Assembly: GCA_963816345.1 (NCBI GenBank)
Contig: CAWFKI010000005.1
Location: 2,550,053 to 2,614,052 of the forward strand
DNA from: an uncultured Bacteroidales bacterium
Lineage (GTDB): Bacteria; Bacteroidota; Bacteroidia; Bacteroidales; VadinHA17
DNA length: 64,000 nt
Direction: 5' to 3'
How positions within the stretch are numbered: position 1 is the first letter of the stretch; each line of letters begins with the position of its first letter. Position numbers and translations under genes: made by a program. Shown in pieces: positions 25,946 to 62,922 of the stretch. The notes beneath the pieces are model-generated. The model searched no databases, was not told where the DNA came from, and saw nothing but the letters and a program-made list of their open reading frames with translations.

Positions 25946-27772
25946 ATGAAAAATCAGCTCAGAAGTTCAAAGACCACCACCGGGAGGAATATGGCAGGGG
26001 CAAGAAGTCTCTGGCGTGCCAACGGTATGAAGCAGGAACAATTCGGAAAGCCTGTCATTGCAATTGTCAACTCATTTACTCAGTTTGTGCCGGGCCATGC
26101 CCATCTTCACGAGATCGGTCAGCTGGTAAAAAAAGAGATAGAAAAGGCAGGATTTTTTGCTGCTGAATTTAATACAATCGCAATTGATGACGGGATTGCC
26201 ATGGGACATGAAGGGATGCTTTATTCCCTTCCGTCCAGGGAACTGATAGCCGACAGCATTGAATATATGTGCAATGCTCACCTTGCGGATGCCATGATAT
26301 GCATAAGCAACTGCGATAAGATTACTCCCGGAATGCTTATGGCAGCAATGAGGCTGAACATTCCTGCGGTATTTGTATCCGGAGGTCCTATGGAAGCAGG
26401 GTTCCGCAATAATAAATATATCGACCTGATAGATGCCATGGTAGCAGCCGCCGATAATTCGGTAAGCGAAAATGACCTGAGCGAAATTGAAAAATTAGCC
26501 TGTCCAACCTGCGGTTCATGCTCCGGCATGTTCACGGCAAACTCCATGAACTGCCTTAATGAGGCGCTTGGCCTGGCCCTTCCCGGAAACGGAACAATAG
26601 TGGCCACACACGCGAACAGGATAAAGCTGTTTGAAAAAGCTGCCGCATTAATTGCCGATATGGCTGACAGATATTATAATAAAGGTGATGCCTCTGTTCT
26701 TCCCAGATCGATAGCCACAAGGGAGGCGTTTATGAATGCAATGTCGCTCGACATAGCGATGGGAGGATCGACAAATACCGTTCTGCATCTTCTGGCCATC
26801 GCAAATGAAGCCGGAGTTGACTTTACAATGAAGGATATCGATGAGCTCTCCAGGAAAATTCCTAATATCTGCAAGGTGGCTCCAAGTTCACAATATCATG
26901 TCCAGGATGTCAACCGTGCGGGAGGCATTCTTGGAATAATGGGAGAACTGGAACGGGCAAACCTTATTAACAGCAAAGTAGGACGAGTGGATTATGCCAC
27001 TCTCCGTGAAGCTGTCTCCGACTGGGATATCATGGGAGGAAAAGCTGTTCAGGAAGCAACAGAAGTATTCCGGAGCGCGCCTGCCATGGAGAAAAACCTG
27101 GTCATGGGATCGCAGAATACAAGTTATAAAGAGCTTGATACCGACAGGGAAAAAGGGTGTATCAGGTCCGTAACCCACGCATATAATCAGGACGGAGGTC
27201 TTGCAGTGCTGTATGGGAATATCGCCAAAAAAGGATGCATTGTCAAAACTGCAGGTATAGAAGAATCATTGTTTAAATTCTCAGGTGGTGCGGTGATTTT
27301 TGAATCACAGGAAGATGCTGTTGAGGGAATTCTTAACGGTACCGTAAAAGCCGGGGATGTTGTTGTAATTAAATACGAAGGTCCCAAAGGTGGTCCCGGA
27401 ATGCAGGAAATGCTATACCCTACCTCCTATCTGAAGTCAATGGGTCTTGACAAGAAATGTGCCCTTATAACTGACGGACGCTTTTCAGGCGGTACATCAG
27501 GCCTTTCTATCGGTCACGTCTCCCCGGAAGCTGCCTCGGGAGGAGAGCTTGCACTGATCAGAACAGGCGACAGGATTGAAATAGATATTACGGGAAGAAA
27601 GATAAATGTTATGTTATCTGAGGATGAACTTGATTCCAGAAGGGCTGCTGAATCATCCAAAGGGAACAGGGCATACAAACCTGAAAAACGTAACCGTATT
27701 ATCTCCTCTGCACTTAAAGCTTATGCAAAATATGTAAGTTCAGCAGACCTGGGAGCTATAAGGATGATATAG
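25946..27772 (+). CDS. ilvD: Dihydroxy-acid dehydratase
   Basis: 608 aa with IlvD/Edd family motifs throughout ([37 protein letters not shown]). Confidence 0.95.
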
Positions 27773-27840
27773 CACGGGGCACAGGGCACAGAGCACAGGG
27801 CACAGAGCACAGAGCAAAGAGCACAGACTAGAGCATAGAG
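27772..27840. repeat. Tandem heptanucleotide array (GCACAGR)n
   Basis: GCACGGG GCACAGG GCACAGA GCACAGG GCACAGA GCACAGA GCAAAGA GCACAGA followed by a degenerate tail. It starts on the last base of the ilvD stop codon. Confidence 0.9.
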
Positions 27841-27885
27841 ATTACTAAGGGATAAAAAACAGGATATTAAGACAAAAATCGAAAT

Positions 27886-29626
27886 ATGAAGAGTGTAAAG
27901 GAAAAAGAACAGGCAACAGCACAAATTAACGGACTGGAGTGTATTACAGGTGCAGATGCCATAATAAGATGCCTCATTGAAGAGGGAGTTGATACTATAT
28001 TTGGTTATCCCGGCGGAGCTATCATGCCTGTATATGATAAGCTTCTTGATTATGAAGGTCAGATAAAGCATTATCTTACCCGTCACGAGCAGGGAGCAGC
28101 TCATGCAGCGCAGGCTTATGCCATGGTAAGCGGGAAACCGGGGATCTGCTTTGCAACATCAGGCCCGGGTGCTACAAATCTGGTAACAGGGATAGCAAAT
28201 GCGTTTCTCGACTCGGTTCCGGTTGTTTTTATTACAGCCCAGGTAGTATCGGGCCTCATAGGAACAGATGCTTTTCAGGAGACTGATATTATAGGTGTAT
28301 CGATGCCTGTGACAAAATGGAACTGCCAGATCAAGAAGCCACAGGATATACCTGAGACACTTGCAAAAGCTTTTTACATAGCAAAAACAGGCCGCCCCGG
28401 CCCCGTACTAATCGATATTACAAAAGATGCACAGATTGAGAAACTTGATTTCAGGTACTCCAAATGTGTCTCACTTGAGAAGCTATAATCCGAATATCCC
28501 CCTGCATACCAAGGCGATAGAATCGGCAGCAATAATCATCAACCATGCCGAAAGGCCTCTTATCCTTGCAGGACACGGAGTGCTTCTTTCCGGTGCAGAG
28601 AAGGAGCTTAAGGCATTTGCTGAGAAAACAGGCATACCTGTTGCGCTTACCCTCCTCGGGTTGTCTGCATTTCCATCCGACCACCGCCTCTTCGCCGGGA
28701 TGCTTGGCATGCACGGAAATTACGGCCCGAATCTGCTGACCAATCAGGCTGACCTCATAATAGCAATCGGAATGCGTTTTGATGACCGTGTTACGGGAAA
28801 TCTTAAAAAGTATGCAAATAATGCAACGATAATCCATATCGAGATTGATGAAGCCGAGATAAATAAAAATGTTGTGGTCGATGTTGAAATAAATAATGAT
28901 GCAAAGGAGGCTTTAACATATCTGACACGAATTGTGAAGGAGAACTCCTTTGAGAAATGGATCAGGGAATTCAGGATATGCGATAAAATCGAATACGATA
29001 AAGTTATCAAGCCTGAAACGAAACCAGAATCGGGTGAGATTAAGATGGGTGAGGTAATAAGACTGGTCTCCGAACATACAAAAGGAGATGCCATTATTGT
29101 AACGGATGTCGGACAACATCAGATGTATACTGCCCGTTACTATAAATTTAATAAACCAAACACACTTGTCACCTCGGGTGGAATGGGAACAATGGGTTTC
29201 GGCCTTCCTGCCGGGATAGGAGCAAAGATCGGAAGCCCGGAAAAGACTGTAATAGCATTCATAGGAGACGGTGGTTTCCAGATGACAATGCAGGAACTGG
29301 GAACAATATTGCAGTATGGCATTGCTCTGAAGATCATCATACTCAATAACAATTTCCTTGGAATGGTGCGCCAGTGGCAGGACATGTTTTTCGATAAGCG
29401 CTATGCCTCAACAGAACTGGTAAATCCGGATTTCGTTATGATAGCCAAAGCTTTCAGTATACCTTCAAAAAAAGTTACTCTGAGAGAAGACCTTAAAGAT
29501 TCCCTTATTGAGATGATAGACGCCGAGGGACCCTATCTTCTCGAAATAAAGGTGGAGAAGCAGGGAAATGTATTCCCAATGGTTGAACCGGGAAAATCAG
29601 TCTCGGAAATAAGATTGACTTATTAA
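27886..29626 (+). pseudogene. ilvB: Acetolactate synthase large subunit with an interrupted reading frame (authentic or sequencing artefact)
   Basis: ORF 27886-28488 (TPP-binding N-domain) ends ...[16 protein letters not shown] 28427-29626 in the +1 frame carries ...LRSYNPNIP...[10 protein letters not shown] and the rest of the enzyme. Removing one nt near 28477 would give a continuous ...[16 protein letters not shown]... protein. Confidence 0.85.
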
Positions 29627-29682
29627 CCCGCATTGCTGACAGCATGAGGGCAGAAAATCTTTAATATCAAAATTATATTACG

Positions 29683-30249
29683 ATGAAACAGGAATATACA
29701 ATATCGCTTTTCACTGAGGACCATATCGGTATCCTTGGACAGATAACAATCATACTTACCAGGAGGCAGATAAATATCGACAGCTTCAGCGCCTCCGAAT
29801 CAGCCGTAAAAGGGGTTCATCTTCTCACAATCGTTGTAAAAACAACAAGCGAGATGATCCAGAAAGTTGCAAGGCAGATGGAAAAGCTTGTAGATGTACT
29901 GAAAGTATTTGTGCATACATCCGACCAGATCATCTACCAGGAGATTGCACTGTTCAAGGTGACAACCAAGGGGCTGATGTCGGGAAACATCATTGACAAT
30001 ATAGTCAGGACTCATCATGCACGTATCCTTGAGGTATCACCCGAATACATTGTAATTGAAAAGACCGGTCACAGGACTGAAATTGCCGAATTGCTCAGCC
30101 AGCTCGAGCCGCACGGAGTGCTGCAGTTCGCCAAATCAGGAAGAATAGCGATAACAAAACAGGTTAAAGAGCTTAATTCATACCTTAAAGAGATGGATGC
30201 CGCTACCAGGCTAAAGCCTGAATCGCTGGACCTGCCACACAAAAATTAA
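29683..30249 (+). CDS. ilvN: Acetolactate synthase small (regulatory, ACT-domain) subunit
   Basis: 188 aa with an N-terminal ACT domain (ISLFTEDHIGILGQITIILTRRQINIDSF). Located between ilvB and ilvC. Confidence 0.88.
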   Translation: MKQEYTISLFTEDHIGILGQITIILTRRQINIDSFSASESAVKGVHLLTIVVKTTSEMIQKVARQMEKLVDVLKVFVHTSDQIIYQEIALFKVTTKGLMSGNIIDNIVRTHHARILEVSPEYIVIEKTGHRTEIAELLSQLEPHGVLQFAKSGRIAITKQVKELNSYLKEMDAATRLKPESLDLPHKN

Positions 30250-30326
30250 CTGCCGGGAAAACCAGTGTAAACTAATGACTATAAGAAAAATACCAGTATT
30301 AATCAAATATTTAATATTTAAAGATC

Positions 30327-31376
30327 ATGGCAAAAATTGATTTTGGCGGAGTAGTTGAGAATGTAGTTACAAGAGATGAGTTTCCACTCTCAAAAGCCCG
30401 TGAAGTGCTTAAGAATGAAATAGTAGCTGTAATTGGTTATGGCGTACAGGGACCTGCCCAGTCTCTTAATATGAGAGATAATGGAATAAATGTAATCATA
30501 GGACAGGCTCCGGAGTTTAAGGCCGACTGGGACAAAGCTGTAGCAGATGGTTTTGTACCGGGGAAAACTCTTTTCCCTGTTGAGGAAGCAGTAAAAAAAG
30601 GCACAATCATTCAGTACCTTGTTTCAGACGCAGCTCAGCGTATTCTCTGGCCAAAAGTCAAGGAATGCCTTAAGAAGGGCGATGCACTCTATTTTTCCCA
30701 TGGTTTTTCAATAACTTATAAAGAGCATACAGGGGTTATTCCTCCTCCTTATGTGGATGTTATACTCTGTGCGCCGAAAGGTTCCGGGACCAGTGTCCGC
30801 AGGAATTTCCTGGCAGGTGCAGGAATTAACTCCAGCTTCTCAGTCTTTCAGGATTATACCGGAAGAGCTGAAGAACGCACCATTGCACTTGGTATAGCAA
30901 TTGGTTCAGGTTACCTCTTCCCGACAACTTTTGAACTTGAGGTTTTCAGCGATCTGACGGGTGAACGGGGAGTTCTGATGGGTGCCCTTGCCGGCATTAT
31001 GGATGCACAGTACAAGGTACTTCGCGAGAATGGTCACAGCCCTTCGGAAGCATTTAACGAAACTGTTGAGGAGCTCACCCAGAGCCTGATACGGCTCGTC
31101 GATGAGAACGGCATGGACTGGATGTATTCCAACTGCAGCGCTACTGCCCAGCGTGGAGCCCTCGACTGGCGTCCGAAATTCATGGCTGCAACACTTCCCG
31201 TTTTCAAGGAGCTCTATAGCAGGGTCAAATCCGGTGAGGAATGTGTCAGAGTGCTCAAATCCACCGGCGCTCCCAACTATAAAGAGATGCTCGACGGAGA
31301 ACTCAGGGAACTTGGCGATTCTGAAATGTGGAGAGCCGGAGCTGCTGTCAGGAAACTCAGGCCGCTGAAAAAATAA
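30327..31376 (+). CDS. ilvC: Ketol-acid reductoisomerase (class I)
   Basis: 349 aa with a Rossmann motif VIGYGVQGPAQSLNMRDNG and a C-terminal knotted-domain region. Confidence 0.93.
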   Translation: MAKIDFGGVVENVVTRDEFPLSKAREVLKNEIVAVIGYGVQGPAQSLNMRDNGINVIIGQAPEFKADWDKAVADGFVPGKTLFPVEEAVKKGTIIQYLVSDAAQRILWPKVKECLKKGDALYFSHGFSITYKEHTGVIPPPYVDVILCAPKGSGTSVRRNFLAGAGINSSFSVFQDYTGRAEERTIALGIAIGSGYLFPTTFELEVFSDLTGERGVLMGALAGIMDAQYKVLRENGHSPSEAFNETVEELTQSLIRLVDENGMDWMYSNCSATAQRGALDWRPKFMAATLPVFKELYSRVKSGEECVRVLKSTGAPNYKEMLDGELRELGDSEMWRAGAAVRKLRPLKK

Positions 31377-31398
31377 ACTGTTATAAACAACTGATAAA

Positions 31399-32892
31399 AT
31401 GAATAATAAGATCATAATTTTTGATACTACCCTCAGGGACGGGGAACAGGTGCCGGGATGCCAGTTGAATACAATTGAAAAGATCGAAGTGGCCCAGGCC
31501 CTTGAAGCGCTTGGAGTGGACGTCATCGAGGCAGGTTTTCCCATTTCAAGTCCGGGAGATTTCAAATCAGTGGTTGAAATTTCCAAAGCCATTACGAATC
31601 CTGTGATCTGTGCCCTTACCCGTGCAATTAAAAAAGATATTGAAGTGGCCGCCGAGGCCCTTCAGTATGCAAAAAGGAAAAGGATACATACCGGGATCGG
31701 CACTTCTCCATTCCATATACAATATAAGATAAAAACAACTCCTGAGGAGATATTGAAAAGAGCTGCCGATGCAGTCAAATACGCCAGGAAATTTGTGGAT
31801 GATGTGGAGTTCTATGCAGAGGATGCAGGCAGAAGCGAAAACGAGTATCTCGCAAGGGTTATCGAAGCTGTTATCAAGGCAGGCGCCACTGTTGTAAATA
31901 TTCCCGATACTACCGGCTATTGCCTTCCGGAGGAGTACGGAGCAAAAATAAAGTATCTTAAGGACAATGTGCCCAATATCGACAAGGCAATAATTTCAAC
32001 CCATTGCCATAACGATCTTGGAATGGCTACCGCCAATACAATGATGGGTGTCATAAACGGCGCCAGACAGGTTGAGGTGACAATAAACGGTATAGGAGAG
32101 AGAGCAGGGAACACCTCCCTGGAAGAGATAGCGATGATCATCAAGAGCCATCACAACCTTAATTTAAAGACTGACATCAATACCAAGCTGATCTACAGCA
32201 CCAGCAGGCTTGTATCAACACTGATGAGCATGCCTGTTCAGGCCAATAAAGCCATTGTCGGAAGAAATGCATTTGCGCACTCATCCGGTATTCACCAGGA
32301 CGGCGTACTGAAAAACAGGGAGAACTATGAGATAATTGATCCTGTAGAGGTGGGCGTTAAGGAGTCATCAATCATACTTACAGCACGTAGCGGAAGAGCC
32401 GCTCTTAATCACAGGCTTGAATTGCTCGGTTTCAAATTCGGTAAAGAAGAGATAGACGATATTTATCACCGTTTCCTGCTTCTTGCCGATAAAAAGAAAG
32501 ATATCAACGATGAAGACATGCGGATCCTGGCAGGTGAGGTATTCCAGGGGGAGAACTCCCTGAAGCTCGATCTGCTTCAGGTATCCTGCGGAAAGTCACT
32601 TATCCCTGTGGCCACGGTAGGTGTGAAAATCAACGGGGAACTTCATTTTTCAACTGCTTCCGGCAACGGGCCCATCGATGCGGCATTCACTGCCGTCAGG
32701 CATCTGATAAGCAAGACCGTTCATCTTGAGGAATTCCTCATCCAGGCGATAACAAAGGGAAGCGATGACCTTGGGAAGGTTCATATCCAGGTTGAGCACG
32801 AAGGAAAGACGTACTACGGGTTCTCTGCCAATACCGATATCATTACTGCTTCTGTTGAAGCCTTTATTGATGCACTGGCGAAGATTGGCTGA
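31399..32892 (+). CDS. leuA: 2-isopropylmalate synthase
   Basis: 497 aa. Motifs: [24 protein letters not shown], and a C-terminal LeuA dimerisation/regulatory domain (GNGPIDA). Confidence 0.92.
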
Positions 32893-33020
32893 CCTCAGGA
32901 CATTACGTCATGAGGGCAAAGGAGGCGGGTTTTACCCCCGGGTAAAGAATAATTGGGGGTTGCGCCGGAAGGGGCGATAAGATCAAAGTAATAGAAGAAT
33001 ATGTATTTAAGAAATAATAA

Positions 33021-34436: not shown

Positions 34437-34440
34437 ACTC

Positions 34441-37757: not shown

Positions 37758-37812
37758 CCTTTGTGTTGTCCTTTGTGATCCTTTGTGTTTAACCTTTGTG
37801 TTTAACCTTTGT
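37758..37812. repeat. Tandem CCTTTGTG-core repeats (periods 10-13 nt)
   Basis: CCTTTGTGTTGT CCTTTGTGAT CCTTTGTGTTTAA CCTTTGTGTTTAA CCTTTGTA. A related block occurs at 44394-44440. Confidence 0.85.
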
Positions 37813-44393: not shown

Positions 44394-44440
44394 CTCTTTG
44401 AGTTCCTTTGTGATGCCCTTTGTGACCTTCGTGTTTAACT
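44394..44440. repeat. CTTTGTG-core repeat block (same family as 37758-37812)
   Basis: CTCTTTGAGTTCCTTTGTGATGCCCTTTGTGACCTTCGTGTTTAAC. It lies in the 100-nt gap between hisF and hisIE, inside the operon. Confidence 0.8.
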
Positions 44441-44459: not shown

Positions 44460-45053
44460 ATGGAAATTGATTTTAATAAAGGAAACGGACTTGTACCGGT
44501 AGTCATCCAGGACAGCAGCACCCTGCAGGTTCTGATGGTCGGATATATGAATCAGGAGGCTCTTGAAAAGACCACCGTCGAAAACAGGGTGACTTTCTTC
44601 AGCAGGAGTAAGAACCGCTTATGGACCAAGGGAGAGACTTCCGGAAATTTTCTTTATGTTGAGACGATTCAGCCCGATTGCGATAATGACGCTATCCTGA
44701 TCAAAGTAAGACCCACCGGACCGGTTTGTCATACAGGCAGCACTTCCTGTTTTGCGGAGGAGACTGCAAAGGGATTTATATACCAGCTGGAACAGATTAT
44801 CAACCAGCGCATTGAAGATAACGTTGCTGACTCATACACAAATAAGCTCTACAGGAAAGGCATTAACAAGGTAGCTCAGAAAGTCGGTGAAGAGGCAGTC
44901 GAATTAATTATTGAGGCAAAGGATGATAATATTGAGCTCTTCAGAAATGAATCGGCCGACCTTTTATATCACCTGCTTATATTACTGAAATCCAGGGGCA
45001 CAGATCTTAAGAGCATTGAGGAGGTCCTGAAGGAACGGCACAATGCCCGCTAA
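44460..45053 (+). CDS. hisIE: Bifunctional phosphoribosyl-AMP cyclohydrolase / phosphoribosyl-ATP pyrophosphatase
   Basis: 197 aa. HisI motifs (WTKGETSG, DCDNDA, CHTGS.SCF) followed by the HisE helical domain (EEA.E...A..., ADLLYHLL). Confidence 0.93.
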   Translation: MEIDFNKGNGLVPVVIQDSSTLQVLMVGYMNQEALEKTTVENRVTFFSRSKNRLWTKGETSGNFLYVETIQPDCDNDAILIKVRPTGPVCHTGSTSCFAEETAKGFIYQLEQIINQRIEDNVADSYTNKLYRKGINKVAQKVGEEAVELIIEAKDDNIELFRNESADLLYHLLILLKSRGTDLKSIEEVLKERHNAR

Positions 45054-45153
45054 GCGAAGTCTCCGCTAAGCGAAGTCCCGCTAAGCGAAGTCTCCAGACT
45101 TCGCTTTATCTATTTAATCCTGCCCCGCTAAGCGAAGTCTCCAGACTTCGCTT
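45047..45153. repeat. CCGCTAAGCGAAGTCT direct repeats ending in two copies of the palindrome AAGCGAAGTCTCCAGACTTCGCTT
   Basis: Three tandem 15-16-nt units start inside the last hisIE codons; the gene's TAA is the TAA of the first unit. Perfect palindromes lie at 45083-45106 and 45130-45153. They probably also act as the his operon terminator hairpins. Confidence 0.85.
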
Positions 45154-46243: not shown

Positions 46244-47420
46244 ACCGGCTGACCGTACAGGCAATGTACAGGAATACTATTTTTCGCAAAAACTTGCCCA
46301 GATAGACAGGATGCGGAAAGAAGGAGCTGACGTCATTAATCTGGGAATCGGCAGCCCCGACCAGGCTCCATCGGAAAGCACCATCGCGGCCCTGACTGCT
46401 TATGCAGGAAAACCGACATCACATGGCTATCAGAGTTATACAGGAGTATATGCCCTCAGAAAGGCATTTGCTGAGTGGTATAAGAAATACTTTCATGTTG
46501 ATCTTAACCCCGAGAATGAGATACTACCTTTAATGGGCAGTAAGGAGGGAATAATGCATGTCAGCATGGCGTTTGTAAATCCGGGCGATGAGGTGCTGAT
46601 ACCCGATCCCGGATATCCCACCTACTCATCTGTTACAAATCTTGTCGGGGGTATTCCGAGGAAATACGACCTGACGGAGGAGAATGGCTGGCTTCCCGAT
46701 CTCGAAGCCCTTGAAAACAGCGACCTGAGCAGGGTCAAGGTGATGTGGGTAAACTATCCCAACATGCCTACCGGGACCAAAGGATCAGTGCAGCTCTTCG
46801 AAAAGCTTGTATCATTTTCAATGAAACATGGAATACTACTTTGCAATGACAATCCTTACAGCTTCATTTTAAATAAGGATTATCACAGTATTCTTCAGGT
46901 TGATGGCGCCATGGAAACAGCCCTGGAGATGAATTCGCTTAGTAAATCACAGAATATGGCAGGCTGGCGCATAGGAATGGTGGCAGGCCACAGAGAGTAT
47001 ATAAAGGAGGTGCTGAAAGTAAAAAGCAATATGGACTCAGGCATGTTCCTGCCGATGCAGATGGCTGCTGTTGAAGCGCTTAACAACCCTGACTCATGGT
47101 ATGACCAGGTAAATGAAGTATATATTAAACGGAGGAAGAGAGTTGAAGAAATAATGGACCTGCTTAAATGCAGGTATGACAAAAGCCAGGCCGGATTGTT
47201 TGTCTGGGGGCGAATACCGGATAATATCAGGAGCTGCGAGGATTTCACTTCGGAAATACTTGAAAAATCACATGTATTTATCACACCAGGGTTTATCTTT
47301 GGGAAAAATGGCGAAAGATATATCCGCATCTCACTCTGCGCTACAGAGGAAAGACTGACGGAGGCGCGGGAGAGGATTATATCAATAGATTCCCCTCCCT
47401 GGAGGGGGGGTGGGTTCTAG
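46233..47420 (+). CDS. Class I/II PLP-dependent aminotransferase (probable aromatic/prephenate aminotransferase)
   Basis: Start at ATG 46233 (MKVKPADR), overlapping the pheA 3' end. Motifs: NPNNPTG-like region and SLSKSQNMAGWRIG (PLP lysine). The last roughly 9 codons (SPPWRGGGF*) are encoded by a copy of the intergenic repeat. Confidence 0.85.
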   Translation: MKVKPADRTGNVQEYYFSQKLAQIDRMRKEGADVINLGIGSPDQAPSESTIAALTAYAGKPTSHGYQSYTGVYALRKAFAEWYKKYFHVDLNPENEILPLMGSKEGIMHVSMAFVNPGDEVLIPDPGYPTYSSVTNLVGGIPRKYDLTEENGWLPDLEALENSDLSRVKVMWVNYPNMPTGTKGSVQLFEKLVSFSMKHGILLCNDNPYSFILNKDYHSILQVDGAMETALEMNSLSKSQNMAGWRIGMVAGHREYIKEVLKVKSNMDSGMFLPMQMAAVEALNNPDSWYDQVNEVYIKRRKRVEEIMDLLKCRYDKSQAGLFVWGRIPDNIRSCEDFTSEILEKSHVFITPGFIFGKNGERYIRISLCATEERLTEARERIISIDSPPWRGGGF

Positions 47421-47741
47421 GAAGAAGCACAGGGCTCAGGGCACGGGGCTCAGGCATTGCCAGCCGTAGCTTTCTTCGACCTCCGTAGCTTTAGCGGAGG
47501 AGGTAGCGAAGGCTGGGCACAGAGCAGTAAGCAGTACTTCAGCAGGATCCCCTCCTGGGAGGGGGCAGGGGTGGGTTCCAGGAAGGGGCACAGGGCACAG
47601 AGCACAGAGCACAGGCATTGCCAGCTGTAGCTTTCTTCGACCTCCGTAGCTTTAGCGGAGGAGGTAGCGGAGGCTGGGCACAGAGCAGTAAGCAGTACTT
47701 CAGCAGGATCCCCTCCTGGGAGGGGCAGGGGTGGGTTTAAA
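47391..47741. repeat. Tandem duplication of a roughly 160-bp composite unit (partial + 2 full copies)
   Basis: Units at about 47421-47581 and 47582-47741 are near-identical. Each contains (GCACAGG)4, a nested hairpin region CCAGCC...CCTCCG TAGCTTTAG CGGAGG...GGCTGG, GCAGTAAGCAGTACTTCAGC, and CCCCTCCTGGGAGGGG(G)CAGGGGTGGGTT. The terminal motif also occurs at 47391-47420. Confidence 0.9.
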
Positions 47742-55186: not shown

Positions 55187-55349
55187 AATTTTAAAGGGAT
55201 TTAAAGATACAATGTCATATATGATTATCTATATTTGGAAACATCTTTCCGGGAATTTCAAATATGCAAAATAAAAGGTAAATAATCCGAAATAGATTAA
55301 TTATTTTAGACAAATTTTGAAACTGAACAATTAACATTTAATTCAAATC

Positions 55350-56474
55350 ATGGAAAACCAAAACAACCCTTCTGTAAAAAGATTACAGTCGCTTGATGCA
55401 CTTCGTGGATTCGATATGTTCTGGATCATGGGCGGAGAAGGAATTTTCGTTGGTCTTGCCACCCTCACCGGCTGGCCGGTATTAACCTGGTGGGCAGGAC
55501 AACTTGACCATGTGCCATGGCACGGTTTCCATTTTTATGATATGATCTTTCCCCTGTTTCTCTTCATAGCCGGAATATCATTTCCGTTTTCCCTGGCCAA
55601 GAGAATCAGGAATAATGACAGCAGGCAATCAATATATAAACACGTAATAGGCCGTGGATTGATACTTGTCCTTTTAGGCATTGTCTATAATAACGGGGTA
55701 AATTTCGATTTTGCCAATATGCGCTACGGAAGCGTCCTTGGACGTATCGGTCTGGCATGGATGTTTGCCGCCATTATTTTCATGAATACAAATCTCACCT
55801 GGCGTATAGTCTGGCTCGTCGGAATACTGGTTGTCTACTGGCTGCTGTTCCTGATCTTTCCTGCCCACGATCTTGGCGCTACCGACCCCTTCTCAATGGA
55901 AGGGAACCTGGCCGGACATATTGACCGCCTCCTGTTACCCGGGAGATTTTGCTGCTACAAATTCGGCGATAGTGAAGGTATCATGAGTACAATACCTGCA
56001 ATCTCAACAGCCCTGCTTGGTATGCTTACCGGAGAGTTTGTAAAGTCACAATACCTGGCCGCTAAACCCGTGCGAAAGGTTCTTTATATGATCCTGGCTG
56101 CAATAGGCTTAATTATCCTTGGCAGGATATGGAATCTCGGTTTTCCTATCAATAAATACCTGTGGTCAAGTTCATTCGTCTGTTTTGTTGGCGGATTGAG
56201 CCTGCTCCTCTTCTCAATCTTCTATCTGATAATAGATGTATGGCAATATAATAAATGGATACTCTTCTTTGTGGTAATAGGCATGAACCCTATAACCATT
56301 TACCTAACAGGCAGAATTGTCAATTTCGGTGCGGCATCCAGGTTCTTCTTCGGCGGAATTACTGCCCTTCTGCCCGAATCATGGGCACCTTTCATGGACG
56401 GATTGGGGATAACCACCGTGGCATGGGTATTCCTTTATATTCTGTACAAAAAGAAGATATTTCTGAAAGTATAA
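55350..56474 (+). CDS. DUF5009/DUF1624 membrane protein (heparan-alpha-glucosaminide N-acetyltransferase-like, NagX-like)
   Basis: 374 aa, polytopic. The N-terminal RLQSLDALRGFDMFWIMG signature is typical of this acyltransferase-like family. Confidence 0.65.
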   Translation: MENQNNPSVKRLQSLDALRGFDMFWIMGGEGIFVGLATLTGWPVLTWWAGQLDHVPWHGFHFYDMIFPLFLFIAGISFPFSLAKRIRNNDSRQSIYKHVIGRGLILVLLGIVYNNGVNFDFANMRYGSVLGRIGLAWMFAAIIFMNTNLTWRIVWLVGILVVYWLLFLIFPAHDLGATDPFSMEGNLAGHIDRLLLPGRFCCYKFGDSEGIMSTIPAISTALLGMLTGEFVKSQYLAAKPVRKVLYMILAAIGLIILGRIWNLGFPINKYLWSSSFVCFVGGLSLLLFSIFYLIIDVWQYNKWILFFVVIGMNPITIYLTGRIVNFGAASRFFFGGITALLPESWAPFMDGLGITTVAWVFLYILYKKKIFLKV

Positions 56475-56477
56475 AAA

Positions 56478-56955
56478 AAGCGAAGTCTGGAGACTTCGCT
56501 TAACAACTTCGCTTAGCAACTTCGCTTAGCGACCCGCTGGCGCCGATTTGTAATTGGTGCCATATCGATTTCCGCTGGCGCCGATTTGTAATCGGTGCCA
56601 TAAACAAAATTACATAAATATTAAATAGGCACGGATTGCAAAGCGCTGCCCGCTGGCAGACCCCCAAACCCCCTAAAGGGGGCTTTTTTATCGTGATCTA
56701 CAAGTTTTCAGTATTACGCGAAGTGTCATACCACGACACCGCTGTGTCAGCCAAGCTCAGCGAAGGCTGATTCTGAATACCGGATACCGGGTTGGCACGG
56801 ATTGCAAATCTGCGCCATAATCGGTGTCATAAATGAAAATTATATTGTAAGTGATGCGGATAACTGCACTGATGCTAATTGGCACGGATTGTAAATCCGC
56901 GCCAGCGCAAGGGAGGAGGGGCCTCCGCTGGCGCCGATTTGCAATCGGTGCCATA
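56478..56955. repeat. Dense repeat/hairpin field
   Basis: Palindrome AAGCGAAGTCTGGAGACTTCGCTT at 56478-56501. AACTTCGCTTAGC x2 at 56505-56530. CCGCTGGCGCCGATTTGYAATYGGTGCCATA x3 at 56534-56564, 56572-56602 and 56925-56955. The inverted relative GGCACGGATTGYAAA...GCC x3 at 56628-56650, 56794-56816 and 56881-56907. Confidence 0.9.
56669..56689 (+). terminator. Candidate intrinsic terminator
   Basis: CCCCC-TAAA-GGGGG followed by C and T6. The short 5-bp GC stem makes this only moderately convincing. Confidence 0.4.
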
Positions 56956-56972
56956 GATAAAATATACCATCT

Positions 56973-58048
56973 TTATTTTTTGACAATGAGTACTATTGCA
57001 TCATTTGCATTGATTGTAAATGATTTTCCGGATGGAATTTTACCATATAAATTTTCAGCTATCTTCCAACCCTCCTTCAGTTTCAGGTCTGCAGTACCAT
57101 CTTCATTATTATAATTGATAAGTACTACCACCCGTTCATTATCACTGATACTATGCTCTGTCACACCGATATAAGGATTGTTCTGAGTTAAGACCCTGTC
57201 CTGGATAACATCTTTTGCAACAAGCTTGTATATATTATAGTAAGCCGGCATTCCCATGTCAAAGGCACCGGGGGTATTCGCCAGGTTGCTCTCCAGCGGG
57301 AAGGTAAGCAGGTAACTTTCCCTTGCCATATTGTGAGACCATCAGCGCCGGATCCCCATCAGGCTCTCTCCCCAGCACTTCAAGATCGACAGGAGTTATG
57401 TTGAGCTTTCGTTCAGAGAATGTCTCAAAATTAAGGCTGTCATTCCCGATCCTGGAATTAAAATGCAAAGCTCCGAATACGCCGGATATTAGTCCGGATC
57501 TCTATCCCCATTGGTTCAGTCAGTGTTGGCAGATATACAAAATCAAGGGAAAGATACAGAGTGGCGCCCTGTTTTACTTTGTCAAGTATCCCATACCAGG
57601 AATCTTTAAAAATGGCATACAATCCCTTTACTGAAGGAAGCATATAAACAGCGGCTTCCCTCAGCTCCTTGCCTGATTTCTGGAACTGAATATCAAATCC
57701 GGTGCTTTGCCAGTATAAAGCTGCTGTAAGCCGCTGCCCAGCTGTCCTGTCCTTCCGTCAGAATGCAAACAGCTTCTGTTTTACGTGGAGGAAGTGTTTT
57801 AAAGGGAAGTTTCTCAAGAAAACCGGAGAAATTTTTAAATTCGGCGAGTACCGGCTTGGGAGTTCTGTCTTCTCTTATTAGTCCAGCTGCTGCTCTACTG
57901 CCGAGTAATTATATGGAGGATAATCAAGCTGAGCGATCAAAACCGCACCACCACAACATCCCTTTGCAATCATGTGCCCAGTTTGAAAAAAGTGCCGTCC
58001 GGGCAAAAGCGGCTTTTTCCTTCTCTCCTGCATCATCGGGCCCATCAT
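56973..58048 (-). pseudogene. Degraded glycoside-hydrolase remnant (clan GH-A barrel end + GH42-like middle/C-terminal domains), N-terminal half missing
   Basis: At least six colinear fragments in different frames: ...GMLWWCGFD / QLDYPPYNYSAVEQQ / GLIREDRTPKPVLAEF...AVCILTEGQDSWAAAY / TGFDIQFQKSGKELREAAVYMLPSVKGLY... / 57468-57259 / 57329-56973. The upstream end abuts the repeat module starting about 58049. Confidence 0.6.
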
Positions 58049-58415
58049 CTTTCTTTTTACGCAAAAAGAAAGTACCAAAGAAAATGCGCCGGAAAAGACA
58101 ACCCCACCCTGTTTGTCCGCCTGCTGCACAAGGCCTTAAAGGCGCCACCAAACAGGGTGCGGTTCGCACCTTTTCCGGTTTGCCCTCGCGCCGCTAAAGA
58201 TGATAATTTTGGAAATGCGAATGGACAGGCCACGCCATGGCGTGGCCCTACGACCTCAAACATACAATAATGTAGGGTCATGCCATGGCATGACCCTTTC
58301 AATCGTAATCCAGGCACTTTAAAATCCTTTCCATTTTATGTCATTAGAATCACAATTACGCGAGCACAATTGAAGTTTTCCTCTGCAGGTTGTGTGCTCC
58401 ATGCTTTCCGCTCTC
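58049..58415. repeat. Composite hairpin module, left copy (inverted relative to 61209-61526)
   Basis: The reverse complement of 58181-58300 matches 61279-61398 with about 4 differences in 120 nt. The ends also match (CTTTCTTTTTACGCAAAAAGAAAG; heptamer/GCATGGAG block). The central hairpin differs, and about 75 nt (58303-58375) are extra. Confidence 0.85.
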
Positions 58416-58513
58416 CGCTCTACGCTCAAATCTCAAATCTCCGATTACCGATTACCGATTACCGAATACCTTTTAACCCTGTACTCGGTGCCCTGTGCCC
58501 TGAGCCCTGCGCC
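58404..58513. repeat. Phase-locked mosaic heptanucleotide array (about 15.5 units, four sequence families)
   Basis: On the plus strand: CTTTCCG CTCTCCG CTCTACG CTCAAAT CTCAAAT CTCCGAT TACCGAT TACCGAT TACCGAA TACCTTT TAACCCT GTACTCG GTGCCCT GTGCCCT GAGCCCT GCGCC. The 7-nt register is unbroken, and it starts 3 nt after the dctA stop. Confidence 0.9.
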
Positions 58514-58516
58514 ATA

Positions 58517-59761
58517 TCACCCCATCTCTTTCCTTGCCACGTCCAGATCAATCTCCTTTTCCCATTTTGCAATGACTACCGTTGCAACGGAATTCCCAAT
58601 AAGGTTTGTGATAGCTCTCGCCTCACTCATGAAGCGGTCAATGCCAAGAATTAAAGCAAGCGAGGCAACAGGGATATTTCCAACTGTCGGAAGAAGGGCC
58701 GCAAGAGTTATAAAGCCACTGCCTGTCACCCCGGCAGCGCCCTTGGATACGAGCAGCAGGACAAGCAGCATCGTCACCTGGTGAGTGAGAGTCAAAGGTG
58801 TATTTGTAGCCTGCGCAAGAAATACTGCTGCCATTGTCAGGTAAATTGAAGTGCCGTCGAGATTAAAGGAATATCCTGTGGGAATTACCAGTCCCACAAC
58901 AGATTCCGATACTCCCCCCTTTTGCAGCTTAGCCATCAGACTAGGCAGTGCAGCCTCTGACGACGAAGTGCCAAGCACGATAAGGATCTCTTCCTTTATA
59001 AATCCGAGCACTCTGAAAATATTAAAGCCAGCGTACTTCAGGATACTTCCTAACACAATAAATATGAATAGAATACAAGTTATATAAAACGACAGCATCA
59101 GCTGTCCCAGTGATGCAAGGGAGCCAACTCCGTATTTGCCTATTGTAAATGCCATTGCTCCAAAAGCTCCGACAGGTGCAACTTTCATGATGATATTAAT
59201 TACGGCAAACAGACCGGCTTCAAGAGATTTGATCCCCCTGAGTACAGGCCTGGCTTTTTCGCCTATCCTCGAGAGAGCGATACCGAAGAGAACTGAAAAA
59301 AACAGTATCTGCAGCAGATCGCCATTCGAAAGGGCATTAATAATATTATCAGGTATTATATGAAGCAGGAAGTTCACCACTCCGGTTGTCTTGCTTTGTG
59401 TGACATATGAAGCAACTGCATCGGCATCAAGGGTTGAGGGGTTTACATTCATGCCCGACCCTGGCTTGAGGATATTTATCACCCCAAGGCCGATAATGAG
59501 CGCCAGTGTTGTGATTACTTCAAAATAGATTATTGCTTTGATACCTACCCTTCCAACCTTTTTTATGTCCTGCATACCCGCAATCCCGTTCACTATTGTA
59601 CAGAAAATTACGGGTGCAATCATCATTTTCACAAGCTTGATGAACCCATCGCCCAGCGGCTTCATTTTGACTGCAATTGCCGGCCAGAAGAAACCAATTG
59701 CAATGCCGATCAATATGGCTGTAATAACCTGGGCATATAGACTTTTAAAGATCTTTGGCAT
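58517..59761 (-). CDS. dctA: C4-dicarboxylate/cation symporter (DAACS family)
   Basis: 414 aa, colinear with E. coli DctA: [38 protein letters not shown]. Confidence 0.88.
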
Positions 59762-59870
59762 AATTTGTTCAAGGAATAATATGCTATAATATTAATGAAA
59801 TAAAATTAAACTGTATTTTTTTTTATCAGGAAGACCTGAAGAAACTAACTAAACAGGCGCGGATGTGATG

Positions 59871-59894
59871 AAGCGAAGTCTGGAGACTTCGCTT
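59871..59894. repeat. Palindrome AAGCGAAGTCTGGAGACTTCGCTT (family copy)
   Basis: Perfect 24-nt palindrome in the divergent dctA / URO-D intergenic region. Identical to 56478-56501. Confidence 0.9.
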
Positions 59895-59985
59895 AGCTCG
59901 GGTTAAAAAATATTAATCTGATATTGCCAAATCGTTAATATCTTTAAAACTATCAAAAAATCTGATAAAACGTTAAAAAAGAATC

Positions 59986-61209
59986 ATGAACTCAAGGGAA
60001 AGAATTCTTTCGGCAATAAACCATAAGCAGCCCGACAGGGTACCCATTGACCTCGGCAGTTCAACAGTTACCGGGATATCTGCCATAGCATATAACAAGC
60101 TGAAGCGTCACCTGAACATTGAAAGCAAAACCAGGGTCTTTGATGTGGTGCAACAGCTGGCAAGTATAGATATGGAAATAGTCGGCATGCTGGGTGTTGA
60201 TGCCCTCGATATTAACAGGGTGTCGACTGAAGGCAACGACTGGTATGATGTTGAACTGGCTGACGGAAGCAAAGCACAGTATCCGGCATGGTTCAGACCC
60301 ATTCGGTCAGAAGATGGCTCATGGTATACAAAAGATAATGATGGCCTGGTTCTCTCAAAGATGGCAGCAGGAGCCACATTCTTCGATCAGATGCAATTCC
60401 CCTGGGAAAACGGATATCCTGAGAGTACCTCCACCCTGAAGGAGGATCTGAAGAAGATAAGCTGGGTTGTTCACTCACACGCCTCGAATCTGAACGAGAC
60501 TGAGCTAAGGGAAAAACTTGTGAAACTGAAGAACTCCACCGGCAAGGCCCTTGTAATGTCCGGCGGAGTGAAGCTTCTCGAGCTTGGATTTTTCATCAGG
60601 CGAATGGATAACTTCCTCATGGATCTGATGACGGATGAACCTAAATTATCCGAACTGCTCGATATGCTTGTGGAGATGCACCTGTCAGGACTGGAGAAAA
60701 AATGCCGCAACCTGGGGGATGTCGTTGATGTGATCAGGTTCGGTGACGATCTGGGTATGACATCCGGGCCGTTCATGGACCTGGAAACTTTCCGGAAATT
60801 CCTCAAGCCCAGATACAGGATCCTATGCGATTATGTAAAGAAACACAGCAACATGAAGATCTTCATGCACTCCTGCGGCAGCATAAAACAATTCATCCCC
60901 GACCTGATTGATGTCGGGATTGATATTCTCAACCCGGTGCAGACCAACTGCTACCAGATGGATCCGGTGACCCTCAAGAATGAATTCGGAAAAGATATAA
61001 CCTTCTGGGGAGGAGGAGTTGATACTGCATCAGTTCTGAACAACGGCACTCCTGAAGAGGTACGCGCTGATGTTCTTAAAAGATGCGAGATCCTGTCGGT
61101 TGATGGAGGATTTGTCTTTGCTCCGATTCACAATATCCTTCCTGATGTATCGCCGGAAAATATAATGGCAGCCTATTCTGCCGTGAGGGAGTTCAATGGG
61201 GAGATATGA
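59986..61209 (+). CDS. Uroporphyrinogen-decarboxylase (URO-D/MtaA-CmuA-like) family protein, function unknown
   Basis: 407 aa. The N-terminal MNSRERILSAINHKQPDRVPIDLG and C-terminal FWGGGVD...GGFVFAPIHNI are typical of URO-D-fold proteins. Confidence 0.7.
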   Translation: MNSRERILSAINHKQPDRVPIDLGSSTVTGISAIAYNKLKRHLNIESKTRVFDVVQQLASIDMEIVGMLGVDALDINRVSTEGNDWYDVELADGSKAQYPAWFRPIRSEDGSWYTKDNDGLVLSKMAAGATFFDQMQFPWENGYPESTSTLKEDLKKISWVVHSHASNLNETELREKLVKLKNSTGKALVMSGGVKLLELGFFIRRMDNFLMDLMTDEPKLSELLDMLVEMHLSGLEKKCRNLGDVVDVIRFGDDLGMTSGPFMDLETFRKFLKPRYRILCDYVKKHSNMKIFMHSCGSIKQFIPDLIDVGIDILNPVQTNCYQMDPVTLKNEFGKDITFWGGGVDTASVLNNGTPEEVRADVLKRCEILSVDGGFVFAPIHNILPDVSPENIMAAYSAVREFNGEI

Positions 61210-61526
61210 GCGTAGAGCGTAGAGCGTAGAGCGTAGAGCGAAGAGCATGGAGAGCACAACCTACAGAGGAGAACGGTTAAAGGGGTCATGCCATGGCATG
61301 ACCCTACATAATCGTATGTTTGAGGTCGTAGGGCCACGCCATGGCGTGGCCTGTCCATTCGCATTTCCAAAATTATCATCTTTAGCGGCGCGAGGGCAAA
61401 CCCCAAAAAGGTGTGAAATTAATGGCTTTGGGCCCTGGTTCGGGAGGGCCCGTGGGCAACAAAGCCATTAATTTTTCTTTTTGGGCGCCTTTTCTTTGGT
61501 ACTTTCTTTTTGCGTAAAAAGAAAGT
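61209..61526. repeat. Composite hairpin module, right copy (inverted relative to 58049-58415)
   Basis: Begins with (AGCGTAG)4 AGCGAAG AGCATGG on the stop codon of the URO-D gene. It then has palindromes GGGTCATGCCATGGCATGACCC (61283-61304) and GGCCACGCCATGGCGTGGCC (61332-61351), a 15-bp-arm hairpin AAATTAATGGCTTTG...CAAAGCCATTAATTT, and ACTTTCTTTTTGCGTAAAAAGAAAGT. Confidence 0.85.
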
Positions 61527-61580
61527 ACAATAAAAAAGTCCCCTTTAGGGGATTTAGGGGTGATAAAAGGGTCTCACATC

Positions 61581-62636
61581 TCACACCCGTCTTCGTATCT
61601 CTTTAACTGCCTCAATCATGGCAAGAAATCCATCGACAGGAATATAACCCGGAATTGAGTTACCGGATCCAAGCCCGTATCCGTTTGCCATCCGGCGATA
61701 AGCTGTTCCCTGCTTTAATACAGTCTGAAATACATCCTCAGGTTTACTCAGTATTAAAAGGTTAAGATCAAAACCGCCGAATAGTCCGATCCTGCCGGAA
61801 TATCTCTCAATCCATTCACTGAAAGGAGCAATCTGATCCTCATTTGAATGCTTTGCATCAATCCCGAGAGCAATGAGATCATCCATCAGCGGGAAGATCC
61901 TCCCGCAGCTGTGAAGGAGGAATTTCTTTCCGGAGGAATGGACAAGGTCAATCACACGACTGTACTGAGGGAAAATATGCTGCCTCACTATATCGGGATC
62001 AAGCATTGTGGAGGTCTTATGACCAAGGTCGTCTCCCATCCTGTAAAAGACAAAAAGATCATCATAATTCTCAATAACCCAGCTCCACAATTCCACCCAC
62101 AGGTCCCCGATCCTTACAAACAGATCCCTGAACAGCTCCGGATCAAGGCACTGCATAATGCATAAAGGTTCAAACCCGACAATATCCTGGCTTGCCTCAA
62201 ATATGCCATAGCCGCACCCTCCGTAAGCCTTCATGCCGGCAGGCAGCGTCTTCCTGATCGCCTCAAAATGAGGGGTATAAGTCTGTTTGAAGATTGCAGG
62301 AATTTCATCCCACGGATATTTCTCAAAATCATCCCTGGTCTGGACCGGTCCTTTCATACCTCCCATTATTGCACCATGACCGGGTAATATATCACATATT
62401 GCAGCCTCAAAATCAAACCCGTCGTATGTCATCTCTTTCCAGAAGCCGATGATCTTCCGGTAGTATCCAATTAATTCATCCGCAGTAAGATTCTCCGGAC
62501 TCAGCTCCTCGCCTGCCGCTTTTGATATAAACGGCGCATCTATATGATGCTCATAAAGCGGAAGACGACCGGGCTTCTGGTTTTGCAGCACCCGGAGAAG
62601 GTTGGTGTAATCGGGTTGGAAAGTAGTCTGTTTCAT
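61581..62636 (-). CDS. Uroporphyrinogen-decarboxylase (URO-D) family protein, function unknown
   Basis: 351 aa, a distant paralog of 59986-61209. Motifs: KPGRLPLYEH, HSCGRIFPLMDDLIALGIDA, GLFGGFD. Confidence 0.65.
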   Translation of the reverse strand: MKQTTFQPDYTNLLRVLQNQKPGRLPLYEHHIDAPFISKAAGEELSPENLTADELIGYYRKIIGFWKEMTYDGFDFEAAICDILPGHGAIMGGMKGPVQTRDDFEKYPWDEIPAIFKQTYTPHFEAIRKTLPAGMKAYGGCGYGIFEASQDIVGFEPLCIMQCLDPELFRDLFVRIGDLWVELWSWVIENYDDLFVFYRMGDDLGHKTSTMLDPDIVRQHIFPQYSRVIDLVHSSGKKFLLHSCGRIFPLMDDLIALGIDAKHSNEDQIAPFSEWIERYSGRIGLFGGFDLNLLILSKPEDVFQTVLKQGTAYRRMANGYGLGSGNSIPGYIPVDGFLAMIEAVKEIRRRV

Positions 62637-62656
62637 TCTGAATTATAAATAATATA

Positions 62657-62772
62657 GGCATCAGGCATCAGGCTTCAGGCTTCAGGTTAAGCACAGGGCA
62701 CAGGGCGCAGGCACGGGCGCAGGATTAAAAGGTATTCGGTATTCGGTATTCGGTATTCGGTGTCCGGTCGTC
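62657..62772. repeat. Concatenated heptanucleotide arrays
   Basis: (GGCATCA)2 (GGCTTCA)2 GG TTAA (GCACAGG)2 GCGCAGG CACGGGCGCAGG ATTAAAA (GGTATTC)4 GGTGTCC GGTCGTC. The GCACAGG-TTAAAA-GGTAWTC order is the same as on the opposite strand at 58446-58513. Confidence 0.9.
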
Positions 62773-62845
62773 TTGATTACTCTTATGTAACTTCTTTTTT
62801 CAATAGTTATTCTTATTTAGGGCCATATTAGCTTGTACTGAGGGA

Positions 62846-62922
62846 CTGATTACTGATTACCGATTACCGATTACCGATTACCGATTACCGATTACCGATT
62901 ACTGATTACCGATTACCGCTCT
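62846..62922. repeat. Tandem heptanucleotide array (CYGATTA)10, = (GGTAATC)n in gene sense
   Basis: CTGATTA x2, CCGATTA x6, CTGATTA, CCGATTA, CCGCTCT. The last units encode the final codons (…SGNR) and the TAA stop (62906-62908) of the GH38 gene. Confidence 0.92.

Follow-up and report, generated by a model that had tools for sequence, protein, structure and literature searches.

Short tandemly repeated repetitive (STRR) sequences were reportedly described by Mazel et al. in 1990 in heterocystous cyanobacteria. We analysed tandem heptanucleotide arrays of a similar kind in 64,000 nt of DNA from an uncultured Bacteroidales bacterium of the VadinHA17 lineage (assembly GCA_963816345.1, contig CAWFKI010000005.1, positions 2,550,053 to 2,614,052 of the forward strand); this whole stretch is called the window below, and positions are counted from its first letter. 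Over-representation of heptamers among prokaryotic simple repeats is credited to Mrazek 2007 in passages of two later papers (PMC4679880, PMC4692102). Rehm 2015 (PMC4692102) located the arrays of Xanthomonas and Nostoc near the end of the upstream open reading frame (ORF), and MacGregor 2015 (PMC4679880) reported heptamer direct repeats and 'larger assemblages of heptamer repeats' in intergenic DNA of Gramella, Aequorivita, Elizabethkingia, Flexibacter and Paludibacter. The initial annotation of the window had implied that such arrays are new for Bacteroidota, which is contradicted by these published assemblages; the resemblance to STRR that it also drew is sound with respect to unit length, number of families, dispersal and location.

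The window arrays share with cyanobacterial STRR the head-to-tail heptanucleotide unit, the occurrence of several families (about six here, in six intergenic regions within 36 kb) and the many dispersed intergenic copies. They differ in their host, an uncultured member of the Bacteroidota, in the joining of families to mosaics that keep one register, and in their units, which are GGTAWTC, GCRCAGG, GAGCGTA, GAGATTT and GGCATCA here and CCCCAGT, TTGGTCA and CAACAGT in STRR. As none of these three STRR1-3 units was found among the window arrays, the latter are an analogue of STRR and not a member. With the long simple sequence repeat (SSR) class of 5-11-nt units, as far as Mrazek 2007 is represented in those passages, the arrays of the window and its relatives agree in being longer than expected by chance, dominated by heptamers and mostly non-coding. 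The Xanthomonas GGGAATC and Nostoc GGGGAYT arrays (PMC4692102) are likewise intergenic, lie much nearer to the end of the preceding ORF than to the start that follows, vary in length and sequence between close relatives at conserved sites and include some inverted pairs; in contrast to them, most units here are not G-quadruplex formers, and none of the about six families is dominant. The Bacteroidetes assemblages and the TAACTGA repeats (PMC4679880) have in common with the window arrays that heptamer direct repeats of several families stand side by side in intergenic DNA of Bacteroidetes, that one unit occurs across phyla and that repeats present in one genome can be missing from a close relative. 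The window lacks TAACTGA itself; in Beggiatoaceae and Cyanobacteria it lies mostly just upstream of start codons (PMC4679880), whereas the window arrays lie mostly just past stops. We consider it somewhat probable (roughly 55%) that the window arrays are STRR-like or long-SSR heptanucleotide simple-sequence ('satellite') arrays, which are remodelled by slippage, lie mainly past stop codons and have spread with mosaic intergenic elements.

Period-7 arrays in the window

Arrays were detected with Tandem Repeats Finder and with a separate lag-7 scan, 20 shuffles serving as control, and their gene context was confirmed with Pfam. Seven strong and several weaker period-7 arrays were found between 27.7 and 63 kb of the window; they lie in six intergenic regions, five of which follow stop codons. 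At the set threshold the lag scan yielded 7 arrays for period 7 and none for periods 4-6, 8-12 and 14, and the shuffles yielded 0-0.05 arrays. The arrays are specific to period 7 and vary by whole units between strains. Both techniques recovered every array place listed in the initial annotation, and its central claim, that intergenic DNA here holds tandem arrays of non-coding heptanucleotides from several families, was supported.

The GCACAGR array on the plus strand runs from 27772 to 27823 with about eight good units, then becomes degenerate and decays to about 27840. It lies within an operon, between the stop codon of ilvD (27770-27772) and the start of ilvB (27886), with its G-rich strand in gene sense, and its first base is the last base of the ilvD TAG stop. 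Between an aminotransferase stop (47420) and a prephenate dehydrogenase start (47783), a 161-bp unit is present in 2.1 copies with 93% identity on the plus strand (47407-47737). Each of these units contains a GCACAGG/GCTCAGG array (47427-47454 and 47586-47615), the first beginning 6 nt past the aminotransferase stop, together with a 62-nt hairpin module (47455-47516 and 47616-47677) and a CCCCTCCTGGGAGGGG hairpin. A mosaic array on the minus strand (58385-58513; 58403-58513 in the scans) comprises GGCRCAG x5, GGTTAAA, GGTAWTC x4, GAGATTT x2 and GAGCGKA x3 in one 7-nt register, read in the sense of an SDF/dctA-like gene (stop 58517-58519), and begins 3 nt past the stop of that gene. A GAGCGTA array of five to six units on the plus strand (61208-61250; scan 61208-61246) overlaps the TGA stop of a URO-D-like methyltransferase gene (59986-61209). 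At the stop of the convergent URO-D paralog (61581-62636), a two-unit vestige, TGAGATG TGAGACC, was read from the sequence on the minus strand (61570-61583); its unit family is that of the full array at the same site in the relative L121.

A second mosaic on the plus strand (62656-62772) consists of AGGCATC x2, AGGCTTC x2, GCRCAGG x4, ATTAAAA, GGTATTC x4, GGTGTCC and GGTCGTC, with one 1-nt slip within the GCRCAGG block; its sub-arrays lie at 62656-62686 (AGGCATC/AGGCTTC), 62691-62723 (GCACAGG) and 62731-62768 (GGTATTC). This mosaic is antisense to both flanking genes, and its edge lies 20 nt upstream of a start codon at 62636. The last array, GGTAATC/AGTAATC x10-11 on the minus strand (62845-62922; scan 62845-62918), is in the sense of a GH38 gene and appears as about ten GATTACC units on the plus strand. 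The TAA stop of the GH38 gene (62906-62908) lies inside its second GGTAATC unit, in agreement with the initial annotation. The same source had placed several arrays 0-3 nt after a stop codon, which is correct for ilvD, for the dctA-like gene and, by overlap, for the URO-D-like gene, though not for the aminotransferase. Its statement that a period of 7 cannot be coding was too strong; an array provides GH38 with its last codons and stop, and the last codons and stop of the URO-D-like gene are array-derived in the relatives L134, L135 and L121.

Within the 58.4-kb mosaic (58385-58516), identity at lag 7 was 0.70, compared with 0.14-0.29 at other lags. Neighbouring units share at least five of seven bases along the series GGTAATC, GGAGATT, TGAGATT, TGAGCGT and AGAGCGG; the sole abrupt transition is the GCACAGG/GGTATTC junction, where 3 of 7 bases are alike. 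The register across families that had been claimed for 58404-58513 is therefore real, with an interruption of unit similarity at this junction, and the stepwise identity of units in a fixed register indicates that the 'families' are linked by stepwise change within one array. The recurrent order GCRCAGG-TTAAAA-GGTAWTC was also observed as described, at 58453-58482 (minus strand) and 62715-62748 (plus strand); a third copy lies just outside the window range in a second strain, L119.

A short stretch, ATAT(A/G)(G/A), directly precedes four of the arrays, as GATATAG (27765-27772), GATATGG (58514-58520), GATATGA (61203-61209) and AATATAG (62648-62655). It holds the stop codon of the upstream gene in three of the four cases, in differing frames, and the related GAGATAT serves as an array unit in relatives.

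Strain L119 is about 98% identical to the window and was assembled separately from another sample. It carries the same arrays in the same places, indicating that the arrays are real and not an assembly artefact; the concern that they lie in assembly-collapsed regions was thus not borne out. Comparison of copy number between the two strains revealed a whole-unit difference, i.e. a 14-nt insertion in L119 that adds two GCGCAGG units to the GCRCAGG array at 62700. Two further arrays of L119 show small indels that are possibly sequencing noise. The window probably stems from a long-read metagenome assembly, its ilvB and GH38 genes are split and L119 is noisy, all of which would suit an artefact of assembly or sequencing, but besides L119 there are dozens of assemblies of various projects that have arrays, at orthologous sites and elsewhere, and the probability of such an artefact is negligible. 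As to the split genes themselves, ilvB (27886-29626) appears as two overlapping ORFs of 200 and 399 aa, and the GH38 ORF (62906-63895) comprises the C-terminal domains only; these breaks, which are far commoner in L119, may be frameshift errors of long reads or pseudogenes.

Distribution, location and turnover of arrays

Eighty metagenome loci were collected through the URO-D-like protein, i.e. they were not chosen for repeats. Array density per 100 kb was 10.9 in the window, 13.6 in relatives with at least 74% amino-acid identity and 1.3 in relatives with 52-69% identity. The arrays are typical of the lineage, and confinement to the window, which had been named as a reason to dismiss them, was not found, close relatives carrying dense arrays. 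They are drawn from a small shared unit vocabulary: in this protein-ascertained sample, 33 of 38 arrays belong to six unit families, with GGTAWTC making up 34%. The Bacteroidales genome L083 carries a 280-nt mosaic built from the unit vocabulary of the window. The closest homologues are named Bacteroidetes or Bacteroidota, and the array vocabulary is common to Bacteroidales metagenome-assembled genomes.

A collection of species-representative genomes was also scanned for exact (GATTACC)x3, so that the loci obtained were ascertained through a GATTACC array. The motif was present in at least 118 stretches, and the hosts among the matches listed include uncultured Bacteroidales, Aequorivita, Saprospiraceae, Chloroflexota/Anaerolineae, Microcoleus, Calothrix, Tolypothrix, Verrucomicrobiota, Elusimicrobiota and Chlorobium. 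The loci listed contained 293 period-7 arrays, as compared with 38 of period 8 and at most 10 for each other period, and 179 of the 293 had units other than GATTACC. TGGTCAA x7 was seen only in the Chloroflexota locus L118. Viral contigs gave 5 GATTACC matches, against 3 and 0 for two composition-matched controls, all of which are small numbers.

Statistics of position and orientation are to be read with the caveat, which bears on the satellite interpretation, that genes were crude long-ORF calls and that many loci were ascertained through a GATTACC array. The DNA surveyed is about 80% coding, and 85% of its 318 arrays were intergenic. Between co-directional genes the median distance of array clusters was 19 nt to the upstream stop and 73 nt to the downstream start, and 29 of 85 arrays lay within 5 nt of the stop, compared with 9 of 85 within 5 nt of the start. 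Across phyla GATTACC showed no preferred orientation relative to transcription (24 against 20 in these GATTACC-ascertained loci); in the clade of the window GGTAATC is mostly in sense.

The sequence directly past the stop of the URO-D-like gene was compared as an orthologous site. Arrays were found there in 13 of 25 relatives with at least 74% amino-acid identity, with at least eight different units, and in none of the relatives at 52-69% identity. The window has GAGCGTA x5 at this site, L120 (91% amino-acid identity) has GTTCAAG/GTTTAAG x15 and L121 (84%) has GAGATGT x5. A weak GGTSCTK array is present in L122, GGTAWTC-type arrays in L126, L127, L131, L134, L135 and L137, GAGGAAT x12 in L128 and CTCCTCA x4 in L148, and about half of the close relatives have no array. 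In the protein tree the array-bearing genomes are scattered within one clade. The L121 array repeats the final 7 nt of the coding sequence in tandem, indicating that it arose in place, and the arrays of L134 and L135 include the end of the URO-D-like gene. Some arrays contain runs of identical variant units and super-units of 14 nt, and the GGCRTCA family has been kept at one orthologous site in the window and L121. At about 2% divergence the arrays are stable, and by about 10% they have been replaced; site and period persist and the unit does not.

Mosaic elements, inverted pairs and four-helix-bundle genes

Repetitive extragenic palindromes (REP) and bacterial interspersed mosaic elements (BIME) are mosaic intergenic elements of enterobacteria. 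The window elements resemble them as modular mosaics of short motifs and hairpins that lie at gene 3' ends in several dispersed copies and orientations, and differ from them in that the modules include tandem heptamer arrays; no REP-associated (RAYT) transposase was noticed in the 64 kb, in which no search aimed at one was made. Imperfect palindromes combined in mosaics at gene 3' ends were found at two loci in the form of array-tail-hairpin mosaics: downstream of both the transporter and the URO-D-like gene, a GAGCGKA array is followed by the tail AGCATGGAG..CACAACCTnCAGAGGA and by the hairpins GGGTCATGCCATGGCATGACCC and GGGCCACGCCATGGCGTGGCC. Copy A of this dispersed element (58163-58384, minus strand) extends past the 58.4-kb array with the tail AGCATGGAGCACACAACCTGCAGAGGA and the two hairpin modules, and is interrupted further on by a segment at 56692-58048. 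Copy B (61251-61560, plus strand) has the tail and hairpins of copy A and ends with GTACTTTCTTTTTGCGTAAAAAGAAAGTAC and CCCCTTTAGGGG hairpins; the distal 145 nt of the two copies are about 97% identical. Three copies of the junction CAGGRTTAAAAGGTATTCGGTAWTCGG are present in this genome and none in the other loci examined. The 62-nt hairpin module at 47455-47516 is also found within the L120 array, with GTTCAAG units on either side, and further hairpin modules lie at 45085, 45132, 52856, 52919, 56480, 58275 and 61283. Since these are copies of composite intergenic elements, the recurrent order of units is owed largely to copying and not to a rule of array assembly.

The interrupting segment of 1357 nt is missing from L119. 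It splits a GTACTTTCTTTTT..AAAAAGAAAGTAC hairpin of the mosaic element, and a Pfam scan of one of its ORFs (57763-58197) gave no match. The mosaics at 58403-58513 and 62656-62772 are mutually inverted and bracket a 4.1-kb segment of three genes (the transporter and two URO-D-like genes), the transporter of which is missing in L120. Another hairpin, GCGAAGTCTCCAGACTTCGC, occurs six times (45047-45151, 56478-56535, 52856, 52919 and 59873), several times just past stop codons; at two sites one of its arms forms a tandem repeat, the periods being 15-16 nt and 13 nt, which suggests slippage at hairpins. A REP-like hairpin, GGCGCCGATTTGTAATCGGTGCC, is present in five copies of both orientations within 420 nt (56539-56952). 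Motifs of another repeat family, CCTTTGTG, recur every 10-13 nt in intergenic DNA at 37758-37812 and 44405-44424 and in L120 at 4950-5000 and 6620-6680, and are accompanied in relatives by inverted CACAAAGG copies. Also in L120, about four tandem units of about 120 nt with CCCCTCCTTTTGAAGGAGGGG lie at 7990-8400 next to a DUF559/MTES_1575 endonuclease-like gene. At about 24484-24662 of the window, gene orientation and GC skew switch at an AT-rich gap with a 23-nt tandem repeat; a replication origin near 24.5 kb was considered and rejected, as there is no cluster of DnaA boxes and no evidence for an origin.

Some arrays are paired. In the window, GGTATTC x4 and GATTACC x10 form an inverted pair (62731-62918) with an 83-nt spacer, which could fold into a long imperfect stem. 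A 289-nt RNA containing the pair was predicted to fold with -73.4 kcal/mol (z = -2.58; none of 200 shuffles as good) and with the arrays paired to each other, and the solitary mosaic at 58385-58513 gave no significant RNA fold (z = -0.98). Among 125 pairs of neighbouring arrays, 25, including this window pair, were inverted and of the same unit, with gaps of 3-83 nt. In L121 the space between two inverted arrays is occupied by a gene for a 124-aa protein of Pfam PF05635/bAvd and NCBIfam TIGR02436 ('four helix bundle protein'), at 11216-11753. Homologues, each bracketed by inverted arrays of short tandem 7-8-nt units that differ by locus, are present in L126 (5294-5802), L127 (6257-6760), L128 (2285-2840), L131 (6241-6704), L083 (4071-4614) and L110 (502-1134). 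The unit family tracks the protein subfamily and not the tree of host genes: GAG-type units accompany the copies of L121, L128 and L083, and RGTAWTC-type units those of L126, L127, L131 and L110. Relatives differ at the same site: L137 holds an 'empty' array hairpin there, L141 and L148 one array each, and others array, gene and array.

A tblastn search of plasmids with the four-helix-bundle protein returned 40 records, 39 cyanobacterial and one from Azospirillum, of which 12 (L210-L221), found by protein homology alone and not chosen for repeats, were examined. Inverted short-period arrays flanked the gene on both sides in eight of the 12, with units such as GGGTGTA in Calothrix, GGTGACA in Anabaena 90, GGGAAAA in Geminocystis and GGACAGA in Azospirillum. 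In two loci (L215 and L217) the arrays of the two flanks were clearly direct, in L212 weakly so, and one locus had an array on a single side. When the 120-nt upstream flank was aligned with the reverse complement of the downstream flank, 15 of 21 four-helix-bundle copies, of which five Bacteroidales copies represent a single genomic site, scored better than all 100 shuffles; two of the 21 have direct arrays and four have weak or one-sided arrays.

The TIGR02436 family was first found in intervening sequences (IVSs) of 23S rRNA, the complementary flanks of which form a stem that is cut by RNase III (PMC4990558). The loci of relatives and plasmids share with the IVSs of Coxiella and Leptospira (S23p/PF05635 ORF; PMC4990558) a protein of this family in the loop between complementary flanks. 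They differ in that the flanks are tandem heptamer arrays here and unique inverted repeats there, and in that the cassettes lie between protein-coding genes here and in rRNA there. The window itself has complementary flanks, i.e. the inverted pair 62731-62761 / 62845-62918, without the gene: no TIGR02436/PF05635 gene was found by jackhmmer among all window ORFs of at least 70 aa. A gene remnant in the array regions of the window was rejected, as the best match (25 aa, 32% identity) overlaps translated repeat and is noise. No paper linking the TIGR02436 family to heptamer arrays was found.

Origin and meaning of the arrays

According to the slippage interpretation, the arrays would be located in transcribed, untranslated DNA directly past stop codons, where they would grow, shrink and become homogenised in 7-nt steps by slipped-strand mispairing or unequal exchange. 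Re-amplification of point-mutated units would give mosaics in one register, and the final 7 nt of a gene might give rise to new arrays. Entire blocks with adjoining hairpin modules would then be copied to other intergenic sites as BIME-like mosaic elements and, in relatives, as two inverted arms around a small four-helix-bundle gene. The accumulation at stop codons might be explained if the stretch between a stop and the terminator hairpin is the least constrained DNA, and if units bearing TAA, TAG or TGA can harmlessly overwrite a gene end. Solitary arrays would probably have no sequence-specific role, an assumption in line with the lack of orientation preference of GATTACC, the absence of matches to known RNA families in an Rfam scan and the insignificant fold of the solitary mosaic; inverted pairs would give long imperfect stems, possibly structures of RNA processing or termination. 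Several observations weigh against this interpretation. Pure slippage does not account for a period of 7 nt over 5, 6, 8 or 9 nt or for the same small set of units in different genomes, even of different phyla, and the matching of the two arrays around four-helix-bundle genes goes beyond it. In addition, the G-rich strand of arrays in the clade of the window is in gene sense in 18 cases against 5, which could mean selection at the RNA level; the coding strand of this genome is G-rich anyway.

An explanation that we regard as possible, with the odds clearly against it, is that the arrays represent the arms, or remains, of a mobile cassette resembling the 23S rRNA IVS, with a four-helix-bundle gene in its loop, so that gene-less array hairpins and solitary half-sites litter gene 3' ends and the shared vocabulary reflects cassette lineages. 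This would account for the complementary flanks of most four-helix-bundle copies in Bacteroidales, cyanobacterial plasmids and Azospirillum, for array families that follow the protein subfamily, for a site that is filled, empty or reduced to a single array in different relatives and for the inverted same-unit pairs; the window GAGCGTA array also resembles the AAGCGTA arms of L083, and stem formation and RNase III cleavage are documented for IVSs (PMC4990558). However, the window has neither the gene nor a convincing remnant, solitary arrays make up about 87%, more than 110 GATTACC-array loci among the matches listed have no four-helix-bundle gene within about 4 kb, and some copies have direct, weak or one-sided arrays. 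The protein has no known mobility function, and cassettes may merely tend to insert into array hairpins that already exist. More speculative still is the general form of this idea, in which STRR-type arrays of Bacteroidales, Cyanobacteria, Chloroflexota and others would all be arms, gene-less derivatives or footprints of widespread IVS-like selfish cassettes with a TIGR02436 (Avd-like) gene in the loop and a stem of inverted heptamer arrays that are specific to the locus. In that case the protein might act on its own arrays, recognising or propagating them, and the stem might be a target of RNase III.

By analogy with the proposal made for the TAACTGA repeats of Beggiatoaceae (PMC4679880), the arrays might instead be sequence-specific cis elements in 3' UTR (untranslated region) or intercistronic RNA, i.e. 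platforms for proteins that control mRNA stability or translation. The restricted vocabulary conserved among genomes, the sense bias of the G-rich strand and of GGTAATC in the clade, the constant position at gene ends and the retention of GGCRTCA at one orthologous site are consistent with such a role. It is nevertheless doubtful, because close relatives have swapped the unit outright at an orthologous stop and about half of them lack an array there, the orientation is unbiased across phyla, one window mosaic is antisense to both neighbours and copy number differs between strains. Action through G-quadruplexes, the formation of which was shown for comparable heptamers of Xanthomonas and Nostoc (Rehm 2015, PMC4692102), would be conceivable for the GCRCAGG arrays, which yield GGG runs 4 nt apart and, in the GCGCAGG versions of L119 and L121, at least four consecutive runs; yet a scan for G3N1-7 patterns found no window array with four GGG runs, a quadruplex is impossible for most unit families here (GGTAATC, GAGCGTA, GAGATTT, GGCATCA), and we judge this role improbable. 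Very improbable, too, is that the arrays are contingency repeats whose unit number switches neighbouring genes by phase variation. The two-unit difference between strains and the mosaic 20 nt upstream of a start codon would fit, but nearly all arrays lie past the stops of housekeeping genes (ilvD, the aminotransferase, the transporter) and not in promoters or 5' coding parts, and a 7-nt step in a 3' UTR leaves the reading frame unaffected. CRISPR arrays were rejected, as they require repeats of 24-48 nt with unique spacers and the units here are contiguous and 7 nt long.

The window arrays extend a known class of bacterial satellite DNA to an uncultured lineage of Bacteroidota, in which they occur at very high density. 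In practice they matter as assembly breakpoints, as strain markers and as sequences able to rewrite gene ends. The orthologous-site pattern, the restricted vocabulary and, above all, the association of four-helix-bundle genes with inverted arrays, which concerns loci outside the window, look new. In three phyla or more, matching inverted arrays stand on either side of four-helix-bundle genes of the 23S rRNA IVS family. If this association were true genome-wide, it would tie heptamer arrays to a specific selfish cassette and to processing of the RNase III type, links that are testable in culturable Nostoc or Flavobacterium, and the cassette explanation, if true, would provide a mechanism for the 35-year-old puzzle of STRR.

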